From sequence record PQ657772.1: a DNA stretch of 64,000 bases; one strand, written 5' to 3'. Within the stretch, counting starts at the first letter, position 1; each line of letters begins with the position of its first letter. Under the pieces are notes generated by a model. That model was not told the origin of the DNA, ran no database searches, and was given only the letters and a program-made list of their open reading frames with translations. The translations under genes and the position numbers were made by a program. This document shows, in pieces, positions 12,232 to 13,164 of this stretch. This stretch comes from Escherichia phage EC.P1.

Positions 12232-13164
12232 TCATATTTTTAATTTATTTTCGAGTAAACATTTACATACATAATCAATAACAAGATTTATGTCTTGTAA
12301 ATCAAATGTTTCAGTATACCCATCACCAAAATAATCCTTTGGCAATTTACTACTATTTTTAAGCAGATTTAAAATATTATATTCTACACTTTTAATAACT
12401 TCGGTATTTCCAGTAAAATAATATAATTCCTCTACTATAAAATTAGTTTTTGACCTAATACTAATTAGTCTTGATTTATCAATCTTTGTAGAAATACCAA
12501 CTTTATATTTTATTAAAATATTTTGTTCATATATTCCTAAAATATATAATTTACTTTCTTCTGGGATTGGTCTGATACAATTGCAGTTAAGAGATCCACA
12601 TTTAACTCTACTATAATTAATATATTTGTCAAAATTACACGCTGTACAATAAAATCTAACCTTATATTGTGTACCACGGTATGTAGATTTATCCATATAT
12701 ATTGTATTTGAGTAATCTTTTATTTTATTCATAATAGTGTTATATGCTTCGTCGATATCTAACGGCATACAATATGATGAATGACATTTACAATATGAAC
12801 CTCTAGACTTAACATCATGCACCGTCATATATCTTTCAAACGCACAATCGTCACAATAAAATCTAGATTTGTTTTTTGTAGTTGTGAATGTGGAAATATC
12901 TAATTTTAATTTTGAATTAATTTCACCCAATTTATTATATAAAGTTTTAAATGTGGGACAGTGACAAAATATTCCATTTTTGTACACATTCCTAACTATG
13001 ATATTTTTACTAAACCCACATTCATCACAGAAAAAAGTTGATTTGTTTGATATGGTAGTGTATGTTGTTCTATCCATTTTTACCGATGAACCAATTGAAC
13101 TCAATTTTTCATCAACCAGTCTGAATACTTCAGAATCTGGCTTTTTACTTGGCACTTTACACAC
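12232..13164 (-). CDS. Cys-rich protein: three zinc-ribbon-like repeats plus C-terminal GIY-YIG/T5orf172-like segment
   Basis: Three ~50-aa repeats (FFCDECGF..CHC, FYCDDCAF..CKC, FYCTACNF..CNC) then LYILGIYEQNILIKYKVGIS. Confidence 0.55.
   Translation of the reverse strand: MCKVPSKKPDSEVFRLVDEKLSSIGSSVKMDRTTYTTISNKSTFFCDECGFSKNIIVRNVYKNGIFCHCPTFKTLYNKLGEINSKLKLDISTFTTTKNKSRFYCDDCAFERYMTVHDVKSRGSYCKCHSSYCMPLDIDEAYNTIMNKIKDYSNTIYMDKSTYRGTQYKVRFYCTACNFDKYINYSRVKCGSLNCNCIRPIPEESKLYILGIYEQNILIKYKVGISTKIDKSRLISIRSKTNFIVEELYYFTGNTEVIKSVEYNILNLLKNSSKLPKDYFGDGYTETFDLQDINLVIDYVCKCLLENKLKI

Follow-up and report, generated by a model that had tools for sequence, protein, structure and literature searches.

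A probable T5orf172-type homing endonuclease gene inserted at the start codon of gp432 in an Asteriusvirus jumbo coliphage

The gene and its neighborhood

The window analyzed here is a 64,000-nucleotide stretch of DNA from Escherichia phage EC.P1 (sequence record PQ657772.1), a member of Asteriusvirus (121Q-like jumbo coliphages). On its minus strand, an open reading frame at positions 12232-13164 encodes 310 amino acids when counted from the first in-frame GTG codon. This codon, at 13164, overlaps a ribosome-binding site (AAGGAG, 13164..13169, minus strand) that was located by comparison with the empty sites of the related phages Ecwhy_1 and 121Q. Translation more probably begins at the GTG at 13155, because AAGGAG ends 8 nucleotides before it and because the resulting length equals that of annotated or predicted homologs of 307 amino acids (P0001, P0002, and a vB_Ec-M-J protein annotated as 'endonuclease'). 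With this start, the coding sequence would occupy 12232..13155 on the minus strand, encompassing 307 codons and a TGA stop codon.

The minus-strand protein is under purifying selection. Among the copies of the gene, dN/dS values range from 0.16 to 0.24, and when the N-terminal and C-terminal parts of the protein are considered by region, values for both fall between 0.14 and 0.29. Two overlapping plus-strand open reading frames (12980-13501 and 12144-12281) were set aside as by-products of AT-rich sequence, since it is the minus-strand frame that has homologs under purifying selection. The GC content of the gene is 26.3%, compared to 33% in its neighbors and in the window overall. Neither an HMM search of all six-frame open reading frames nor a tblastn search revealed a second copy or paralog in the window.

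The next gene downstream (11478..12206, minus strand) is a homolog of gp432, which encodes a 242-amino-acid protein of unknown function assigned to phrog_16105. Upstream lies a predicted sigma-70-like promoter (GGGACA-16-(TG)TATAAT, 13196..13223, minus strand), which is the best match in the region, agreeing at 10 of 12 positions and also carrying the TG extension. A repeat search also detected a 25-nucleotide imperfect direct repeat corresponding to the ribosome-binding-site region, with its upstream copy at 13157..13181 and its downstream copy at 12206..12230. The two copies share 80% identity at a distance of 951 bp. No terminator was found between the gene and gp432, and no tRNA was found nearby.

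Zinc-finger repeats and the C-terminal domain

An earlier note based on the sequence of this DNA had proposed that the protein carries three tandem cysteine-rich repeats, and this proposal proved correct. There are three homologous units of approximately 42 amino acids, each containing a CxxC-x17-CxC arrangement preceded by F-[FY]. In the 307-amino-acid numbering, repeat 1 covers residues 25-66 (12958..13083, minus strand; C43, C46, C64, and C66), repeat 2 covers residues 83-124 (12784..12909, minus strand; C101, C104, C122, and C124), and repeat 3 covers residues 152-193 (12577..12702, minus strand; C170, C173, C191, and C193), with identical cysteine spacing in all three. Alignments between the units are significant (33-43% identity; pairwise BLASTP E-values of 4e-15 to 5e-9), which establishes a true internal triplication and excludes chance. 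In the alignment of the wider family, the cysteines of repeat 2 are 96-98% conserved.

An AlphaFold2 model of the protein (pLDDT 93.6) assigns the same fold to every repeat, in which a strand, a knuckle, and a second strand are followed by a short helix and then by the CxC pair at the N terminus of the next helix. In repeat 1, for example, the CxxC pair lies between two strands, the short helix spans residues 54-60, and CxC heads a helix at residues 66-78, all with pLDDT above 90. This pattern of CxxC...CxC motifs around a beta-hairpin, repeated as modules on the N-terminal side of a nuclease domain, is that of the CapR, DUF4379, and DUF723 families. The protein itself does not match the Pfam models of these families at gathering score, and only CoiA_N appears, with 17 bits relative to a cut-off of 26.3. 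Kinship with these zinc fingers is instead transitive and evident at the profile level, as relatives of the protein match CapR, DUF4379, and DUF723 in their N-terminal regions. For comparison, CapR-type fingers are not known to have been solved structurally. Binding of DNA by CapR depends on its cysteines, such that Cys-to-Ser mutants lose binding (Netter et al. 2021, PMC8096241). By analogy, the three fingers described here likely coordinate zinc and might bind DNA in a sequence-specific manner.

The same note had also suggested a C-terminus resembling GIY-YIG or T5orf172 nucleases. The domain is supported by PHROG and other profile comparisons and by the predicted fold, but the exact GIY-x9-YIG register that had been read from the tail LYILGIYEQNILIKYKVGIS (residues 203-222) is off by five residues. 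The literal 'GIY' at residues 207-209 was rejected as the motif, as it is retained in the four closest homologs only and lies opposite nonconserved residues of Odn, a T5orf172 nuclease of phage ICP1. The tyrosine conserved throughout the family is Y204 in the GIY-like element L203-Y204-I205, which forms part of strand 1, and the YIG-like element is Y217-K218-V219-G220 on strand 2. Conservation in the family reaches 89% for Y204 and 87% each for K218 and G220, and lies between 81% and 100% for these three residues together with R229, E258, G279, T281, and E282. The repeats are followed by a C-terminal domain of ~105 amino acids, in which residues 199-300 (12256..12561, minus strand) are assigned to the predicted T5orf172-type nuclease domain (GIY-YIG superfamily). 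Its model exhibits the alpha/beta core expected of the GIY-YIG fold, in which helices flank an antiparallel sheet of three strands.

Counterparts of the catalytic arginine and the metal-binding glutamate of I-TevI (R27 and E75) can be recognized as R229, present in 48 of 54 family sequences, and E258, present in 49 of 53. E258 aligns (hhalign) opposite E180 of Odn, a residue that has been equated with the I-TevI catalytic glutamate and whose change to alanine abolishes cleavage both in vitro and in vivo (Barth et al. 2021, PMC8263062). No conserved histidine or tyrosine corresponding to I-TevI H31 was found in helix 1 (residues 228-235) according to the family conservation list. This residue is likewise missing from Odn, which is an active nuclease (PMC8263062), so its absence is best viewed as a trait of the subfamily and is not disqualifying. 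The retention of these catalytic residues suggests that the C-terminal domain cleaves DNA.

A direct Pfam scan of the protein yielded nothing above threshold, and families of the GIY-YIG clan, including T5orf172 (PF10544) and MUG113 (PF13455), were absent even at E<=10. Direct NCBIfam and PADLOC scans likewise produced nothing meaningful, and the three collections contributed only sub-threshold noise (CoiA_N, TraR, and LapB). Because the protein has no threshold match of its own in Pfam or NCBIfam, it is placed in these families by profile-profile comparison, transitive links, and structure. Standard annotation with these two resources misses this lineage.

Residues 33-306 match PHROG 681 (phrog_681, 'endonuclease') with E=6.4e-21. 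A word-indexed protein search returned three close homologs only. The wider family became accessible through an exhaustive HMMER search, which yielded 52 cluster representatives (E<=0.001), among them the near-identical vB_Ec-M-J protein. When this protein and 53 HMMER relatives (54 sequences) were scanned against Pfam, with T5orf172 and MUG113 counted at E<=0.01, matches were obtained to DUF4379 in 24, CapR in 23, MUG113 in 19, T5orf172 in 17, and DUF723 in 16. The zinc-finger families align with the N-terminal parts of the relatives, and T5orf172 and MUG113 with the C-terminal parts. Some relatives surpass the Pfam cut-offs outright, such as P0008 (E=2.8e-10 to the family) with 22.1 bits on T5orf172 relative to a cut-off of 20, and P0007 with 24.0 bits on MUG113 relative to a cut-off of 22.3. 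Furthermore, profile-level homology extends to T5orf172 proteins that have been studied experimentally. The family profile aligns by hhalign with ICP1 gp174 over 259 columns spanning both fingers and nuclease (98.8% probability, E=9e-17) and with ICP1 Odn (81% probability, E=1.2e-5). Pairwise BLASTP of the protein against gp174 is not significant (E=2.5).

A search of the viral models in BFVD agrees with this placement, with 224 matches at E<=1e-3, many of them full-length and named for CapR homology, T5 Orf172, or GIY-YIG. Foldseek found no significant match for the full model in the PDB, and the best candidates there, kinetoplastid mitoribosomal proteins at E~0.02, were judged to be spurious. 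A search of PDB sequences with the close-family profile gave a marginal match to a GATA zinc finger (E=0.012), which is compatible with a Cys4 site and otherwise uninformative. Among isolated phages, tblastn at E<=1 detected two near-identical copies and otherwise insignificant matches, and a scan of IMG/VR did not reveal relatives.

The insertion site and its footprint

Junction alignments demonstrate that the gene resides in a 949-bp insertion located precisely at the start codon of the gp432 homolog. The segment absent from relatives that lack the gene (12207..13155, minus strand) consists of the endonuclease-like open reading frame and a 25-nucleotide spacer carrying a second copy of the ribosome-binding site for gp432. 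These relatives cover 66-72% of a 3501-bp query from the region. Because the promoter at 13196..13223 is conserved upstream of the site in genomes with and without the insertion, it is predicted to drive gp432 directly when the insertion is absent, and to drive the endonuclease gene first in this genome. Likewise, AAGGAG at 13164..13169 belongs to the original initiation region of gp432, which has been captured by the inserted gene.

Five carriers were identified, namely three genomes from a phage database (including the window-like TH47 and vB_Ec-M-J) and two metagenome contigs, and the gene occupies the same site every time. More than 30 Asteriusvirus records lack it, and 30 of these have a 103-nucleotide empty site at least 95% identical to the query. 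The search for a homing site in relatives without the gene, which the earlier note had recommended, thus uncovered sporadic presence at one precise position with a conserved empty site in noncarriers.

Two additional features of the gp432 coding region accompany the insertion. The first is a variant of the first 60 nucleotides (12147..12206, minus strand), as seen in an alignment of five genomes with the gene and four without. Codons 2-6 in the window are ATA GAT AAT ATA AAA (IDNIK), whereas Ecwhy_1, 121Q, and JNE01 carry CTT GAC CGT ATC CGT (LDRIR) and A4 encodes IDRIR. Relative to the window, these 60 nucleotides are 85-100% identical in alleles accompanied by the gene and 68-72% identical in those without it. 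The codon 2-6 variant is strictly linked to the gene in the five carriers and four sampled noncarriers, and past nucleotide 60 of gp432 no association with gene presence was seen in these nine genomes. This variant stretch probably corresponds to the right half of the target site, in a form changed in genomes that carry the gene.

The second feature is a one-sided tract of divergence (11600..12206, minus strand) covering the 5' ~600 bp of the gp432 homolog. In 100-nucleotide bins, identity between the window and Ecwhy_1 is 100% upstream of the insertion, drops to 79-87% over ~600 bp downstream of it, and then returns to 95-100%. This tract was likely acquired by co-conversion. Judged from these alignments, the linked variant and the one-sided tract constitute a classic homing footprint. 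Copies of the gene share 55-98% amino acid identity and diverge about as much as the flanking genes, so long vertical residence accompanied by loss elsewhere could account for part of the distribution.

A probable homing function and its alternatives

The earlier note had left a choice between a homing-endonuclease-like protein and a regulatory factor that binds nucleic acids. The match to PHROG 681, the profile alignments with gp174 and Odn, and the empty-site footprint uphold the former and render the latter less likely. Overall, we consider there to be a strong probability that the product of the open reading frame is a free-standing homing endonuclease belonging to the T5orf172 branch within the GIY-YIG superfamily.

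In this mechanism, the three CapR-type Cys4 fingers would be arranged like beads on a string along an extended DNA site, and the C-terminal domain would cut nearby by using R229 and E258, probably together with Y204 and E282. In Asteriusvirus genomes without the gene, the target is likely the region where translation of gp432 is initiated, corresponding roughly to AACACAAGGAGTGTGTAAAGTG|CTTGACCGTATCCGTTTCGC. During a mixed infection, repair of the break from a carrier genome would copy in the 949-bp cassette along with flanking donor sequence. Carriers would be protected both by the splitting of the site and by the changes in codons 2-6 of gp432. The cassette would use the early promoter, ribosome-binding site, and GTG that already served gp432, and because it supplies a second ribosome-binding-site copy, gp432 would still be translated. 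Both this target and active homing are inferred.

The closest parallels are the T5orf172 homing endonucleases of Vibrio phage ICP1 and its relatives, such as gp174 and gp165. A T5orf172 domain combined with repeated CapR/DUF723/DUF4379 fingers (CxxC...CxC), the exact architecture seen here, has been described in phage homing endonucleases whose genes lie where genetic exchange has its boundaries (Barth, Dunham and Seed 2023, PMC10448857). As in those proteins, fingers precede a C-terminal nuclease, and the gene stands alone, occurs sporadically among close relatives, and is situated at a boundary of sequence exchange. Unlike them, the protein described here is very divergent, as indicated by the BLASTP and Pfam results above, and carries three fingers with an x17 spacer in place of the 24-26 residues present in CapR and the ICP1 proteins (PMC8096241). 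It also comes from an E. coli jumbo phage, and its neighbor has no known function and is not known to be essential.

Homing endonuclease genes often adjoin essential genes. In SegA-G of T4-like phages and in I-TevI, the nuclease is N-terminal and binding modules of the NUMOD or helix-turn-helix type are C-terminal, whereas the order is reversed here, with Cys4 fingers and T5orf172-type motifs (LYI...YKVG and TETF). The gene is thus a divergent new member of a kind already described, and an ordinary example of it that leaves the current understanding of homing endonucleases unchanged. Its value is as a clean natural case of the recently described T5orf172 enzymes with CapR-type fingers in E. 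coli jumbo phages, offering a precise insertion, a candidate target of ~40 bp, and a visible co-conversion tract. The gene accounts for a local mosaic boundary in Asteriusvirus genomes, and its compact product, with three fingers and a target that can be tested, should be useful for studying DNA recognition by CapR-type fingers.

Some regulatory activity might accompany homing. CapR reportedly consists of the DNA-binding finger module alone, lacks a T5orf172 domain, and represses phage capsid genes. The insertion precisely separates the second codon of gp432 from the promoter, ribosome-binding site, and start codon, reuses the GTG, and supplies a spare ribosome-binding site. The protein might therefore conceivably also recognize the initiation region close to the promoter of its operon and serve in addition as a regulator of itself or gp432, as I-TevI or CapR do, although we regard this addition as unlikely. 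If true, an x17 three-finger array with a natural target could help to decode how CapR-type fingers read DNA.

Slightly less probable still is a domesticated or dual-use regulator that acts mainly by binding DNA through its fingers, that represses or tunes transcription, for instance from its own promoter and in the gp432 operon, and that homes rarely or not at all. There are precedents, in that CapR, from the Vibrio cholerae satellite PLE, is a pure repressor with fingers of the same CxxC...CxC class (PMC8096241) and I-TevI also acts as a repressor (PMC10448857). The gene is directly downstream of a conserved promoter that it shares with gp432, and all five copies occupy one locus and diverge about as much as its flanks. 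However, in contrast to CapR, the protein retains a nuclease domain that is under constraint (dN/dS 0.22-0.29), with conserved catalytic arginine and glutamate residues and TET motif. Sporadic presence, low GC content, the linked variant, and the one-sided tract are likewise expected of a mobile nuclease and not of a regulator.

There is only a slim chance that the protein is a conflict nuclease that cuts competitor DNA (phage, satellite, or plasmid) away from its own locus. Odn (ICP1 gp88) provides the model, as a T5orf172 nuclease repurposed against the satellite PLE (PMC8263062). Its nuclease domain aligns with that of the protein described here, sharing E180/E258, the arginine, the ETF motif, and the lack of a helix-1 histidine or tyrosine, and the gene is accessory within the genus. 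However, Odn is an anti-satellite weapon and not a homing element, and its specificity derives from a RepA_N domain taken from the satellite that it targets and not from CapR-type fingers (PMC10448857, PMC8263062). Furthermore, the junction variant co-varies with the gene across very divergent genomes, which indicates that the gene's own locus is the target, and exclusion of markers from noncarrier phages would be the same mechanism as homing.

Least probable of all, and very improbable, is a once-mobile relic that has lost its cutting activity and is decaying or simply tolerated. Homing endonuclease genes commonly degenerate once fixed, and this protein is too divergent for Pfam thresholds. 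However, the reading frame is unbroken in all five copies (307-309 amino acids), both domains have dN/dS values well under 1, the copies keep all twelve cysteines of the fingers as well as the catalytic residues, and the alignments show a recent transfer into a backbone like that of Ecwhy_1.

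Architecture and family of the predicted endonuclease

The minus-strand ORF at 12232-13164 would yield a protein of 310 aa if translated from its first GTG codon. A strong ribosome-binding site (AAGGAG-TGTGTAAA-GTG) lies 8 nt ahead of a second GTG, at 13155, and the nearest three homologues have lengths of 307, 307, and 309 aa. Because of this spacing and these lengths, the endonuclease gene is taken to span 12232-13155 (minus strand), encoding 307 aa. The three tandem cysteine repeats seen in the earlier note are confirmed, with cysteines at 43/46/64/66, 101/104/122/124, and 170/173/191/193 sharing identical CxxC-x17-CxC spacing and F-[FY] preceding each unit. 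Among the ~42-aa units, identity is 33-43% (pairwise E 4e-15 to 5e-9), and so the internal triplication is genuine.

The GIY-YIG/T5orf172-like C-terminus that had also been proposed was not recovered by direct searches with the single protein: Pfam gave only a sub-threshold CoiA_N match, and NCBIfam and PADLOC gave none. Support came instead from phrog_681 ('endonuclease'; residues 33-306, E=6.4e-21), from relatives, and from profile-profile comparison. A word-indexed search found three close homologues only, at 98, 74, and 55% identity. A HMMER profile of the protein and these three homologues, run exhaustively against 1.84 billion representatives, yielded 52 proteins at E<=1e-3, including the near-identical protein of phage vB_Ec-M-J. 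When the protein and 53 relatives were scanned one by one, Pfam matches among the 54 sequences were to DUF4379 (24; described as a 'probable treble-clef zinc finger'), the CapR homology domain (23), MUG113 (19), T5orf172 (17), and DUF723 (16), with the finger families falling N-terminally and T5orf172/MUG113 C-terminally. Curated cut-offs were exceeded by two relatives, P0008 for T5orf172 (22.1 bits vs 20) and P0007 for MUG113 (24.0 bits vs 22.3).

The 54-sequence profile aligns with ICP1 gp174, a homing endonuclease of the T5orf172 type that carries CapR-type fingers, across both the finger region and the nuclease domain (98.8% probability, E=9e-17, 259 columns), and with the nuclease domain of ICP1 Odn (gp88; 81% probability, E=1.2e-5). 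In the latter alignment E258 faces Odn E180, which its authors equate with the catalytic Glu of I-TevI and whose replacement (E180A) eliminates cleavage both in vitro and in vivo (PMC8263062). Positions Y204, K218, G220, I221, R229, E258, G279, T281, and E282 are conserved across the family and, by alignment, constitute the T5orf172 form of the GIY-YIG active site. A T5orf172-type motif is present in the tail that had been likened to GIY-YIG (LYILGIYEQNILIKYKVGIS, residues 203-222), but its literal 'GIY' (207-209) is not the conserved element. Those residues are kept only in the four closest sequences and lie opposite non-conserved Odn residues; L203-Y204-I205 is the predicted functional equivalent.

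Structure prediction, as the earlier note had proposed, gave a confident AlphaFold2 model from the 54-sequence alignment (mean pLDDT 93.6, zero residues below 50). Each repeat is modeled as a strand, the CxxC knuckle, a strand, and a short helix, followed by another helix whose N-terminus bears CxC; this arrangement fits a Cys4 site of the treble-clef or zinc-ribbon-like type. A beta-hairpin, helix, strand, and helix make up the C-terminal domain. Foldseek found 224 matches among viral models at E<=1e-3, many over the full length, with names including CapR-homology, T5 Orf172 DNA-binding, zinc-ribbon, and GIY-YIG proteins and with jumbo phages RaK2, K64-1, GAP32, and Asteriusvirus 'UB' represented. 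No PDB entry matched the model significantly, and so neither the complete architecture nor a CapR-type finger appears to have a solved structure. The top-ranking PDB matches fell short of significance; they are small-subunit proteins of kinetoplastid mitoribosomes (6hiw_DS, 7aor_at, 7pub_DS; E 0.02-0.07, ~190 aligned columns), and zinc-ribbon-like elements probably account for them.

Insertion site and flanking sequences

The region is 85-97% identical to genomes of Asteriusvirus, a group of 121Q/PBECO4-like jumbo phages that infect E. coli and Salmonella. By tblastn, the endonuclease gene occurs in two database phages only, TH47 (99.7%) and vB_Ec-M-J (97.7%; annotated 'endonuclease'). Two metagenome contigs also carry it, at 75% and 56% identity. 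This sporadic distribution converges on a single site, since all five copies, including that of the window, lie between homologues of 121Q genes gp431 and gp432 (the latter at 11478-12206, minus strand). Other Asteriusvirus records align through the region without 949 bp. The check for an empty site in relatives lacking the gene therefore succeeded, as the 949 bp are missing at one precise position within a conserved 103-nt empty site.

Junction alignments place the start of the insert directly past the GTG that initiates gp432 in non-carriers, and its end directly ahead of the gp432 ATG in carriers. Therefore, the inserted gene uses the resident promoter (GGGACA-16-TGnTATAAT, 13223-13196, minus strand, the region's top-scoring promoter match), ribosome-binding site, and start codon. 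A 25-nt spacer at the insert's 3' end carries a duplicate ribosome-binding-site region that serves gp432; the two copies of this 25-nt direct repeat are 80% identical and 951 bp apart. In Ecwhy_1 (record L002, 1979-2704), the gp432 homologue is annotated merely as a misc_feature, 'similar to hypothetical protein', apparently because its start codon is GTG rather than ATG; its reading frame appears intact at the 5' end.

The flanks carry a sequence variant linked to the gene. In 30 non-carrier records the empty site matches the query at 95% identity or more, although identity to the window across the surrounding 3.5 kb is only 85-93%. All five carriers, the most divergent included, have IDNIK (ATA GAT AAT ATA AAA) at codons 2-6 of gp432, versus LDRIR (CTT GAC CGT ATC CGT) or IDRIR in the four non-carriers sampled, among them JNE01 and A4, both divergent. 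Identity to the window in the first 60 nt of gp432 is 85-100% for carriers and 68-72% for non-carriers; past nt 60 there is no link with gene presence, all being 78-81% except the near-identical TH47 and vB_Ec-M-J. Ecwhy_1, the closest non-carrier, is identical to the window over ~350 bp upstream of the insert, 79-87% identical over a ~600-bp downstream tract (the gp432 5' part), and 95-100% identical farther on. On sequence comparison, this pattern is as expected from cassette transfer with one-sided co-conversion into an Ecwhy_1-like backbone. GC content is 26.3% in the endonuclease gene vs 33% in its neighbors and the window.

A second mosaic patch lies just upstream, at 13500-13800 in the gp430/gp429 homologues, where identity is 71-86% to Ecwhy_1 and vB_Ec-M-J and 93-99% to 121Q; the surroundings show the reverse. 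This suggests an independent recombination exchange.

Probable homing and its alternatives

Class homology and the insertion footprint support the interpretation, offered in the earlier note, of a nucleic-acid-binding and possibly homing-endonuclease-like protein. By analogy with the family literature, each finger would bind zinc and the three would jointly recognize an extended DNA site; in CapR, replacing the cysteines with serine abolishes DNA binding (PMC8096241), and beads-on-a-string modularity is reported for the T5orf172 and CapR-finger class (PMC10448857). The T5orf172 domain, by analogy with Odn, would cut DNA. In non-carriers, the region where gp432 translation initiates, about AACACAAGGAGTGTGTAAAGTG|CTTGACCGTATCCGTTTCGC, is the candidate target, and double-strand-break repair in mixed infections could then spread the cassette. 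Carriers would be immune because the insert splits the target and the right half of the target is altered. Divergence among the copies is about as great as that of their flanks, and some of the distribution may therefore stem from long residence and loss rather than frequent homing.

A CapR- or I-TevI-like regulator is a possible alternative, given that the gene adjoins a promoter, but a purely regulatory role would account poorly for the mobility footprint and for a nuclease domain that is retained and constrained. Among carriers, dN/dS is 0.16-0.24 overall (fingers 0.14-0.24, nuclease domain 0.22-0.29), and this purifying selection indicates that the protein is maintained, not decaying. A role as an Odn-like anti-satellite weapon is unlikely, since the gene-linked variant sits at the gene's own junction. 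A dead relic is also unlikely, as reading frames are intact and dN/dS is low.

The homing reading places the gene in a class described by Barth, Dunham and Seed (2023, PMC10448857), namely T5orf172 homing endonuclease genes with at least one N-terminal CapR, DUF723, or DUF4379 finger. That study found CxxC...CxC-motif fingers in the N-terminal regions of 200 of 229 such genes, which often have repeated fingers, often lie at genetic-exchange boundaries, and are mostly free-standing; it makes no mention of Asteriusvirus, 121Q, or PBECO4. Because the class is already described and this lineage lies beyond Pfam thresholds, the gene is a new, divergent member. What sets it apart is an array of three fingers whose x17 spacer is short, its presence in a jumbo phage, and an insertion point that coincides with a start codon, so that resident initiation signals are reused. 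It is useful chiefly for a candidate target and a homing footprint that are both clearly delimited and that would make it easy to test how CapR-type fingers recognize DNA.

Neighboring genes

No further gene of this class was found within the window. A structural match to the model among the BFVD viral models, A0A2Z5H914 of Escherichia phage UB, is a larger and different 'CapR homology domain-containing protein' (487 aa), and Asteriusvirus seems to carry further such genes at other loci. All neighborhood genes are on the minus strand; they are small, early-type, and of unknown function. A tRNA-repair pair lies a few kb downstream: a T4-type polynucleotide kinase/phosphatase (6409-7341, minus strand; AAA_33 and HAD_PNKP) and RNA ligase 1 (8164-9306, minus strand; RNA_lig_T4_1 and T4_Rnl1_C). 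The pair also lies downstream of the endonuclease gene on metagenome contig L004.

An ORF of 66 aa (14201-14401, minus strand), which starts MNKCPYCNS, finishes CIYCLNCERIHD, and overlaps adjoining ORFs, encodes a small zinc-ribbon-like CxxC...CxxC protein with no sequence kinship to the endonuclease fingers. Five successive small ORFs at 14394-15797 (minus strand; 86-103 aa) look like a tandem paralogue array, to judge from similar lengths and a common N-terminal motif, e.g. (D/E)(I/V)QFTYK(F)LY. Also, long back-to-back runs of minus-strand ORFs, nearly all of 181-212 aa (25126-31780, 34013-36436, and 42676-48701), may represent paralogue families that have expanded, as is typical of these jumbo phages.
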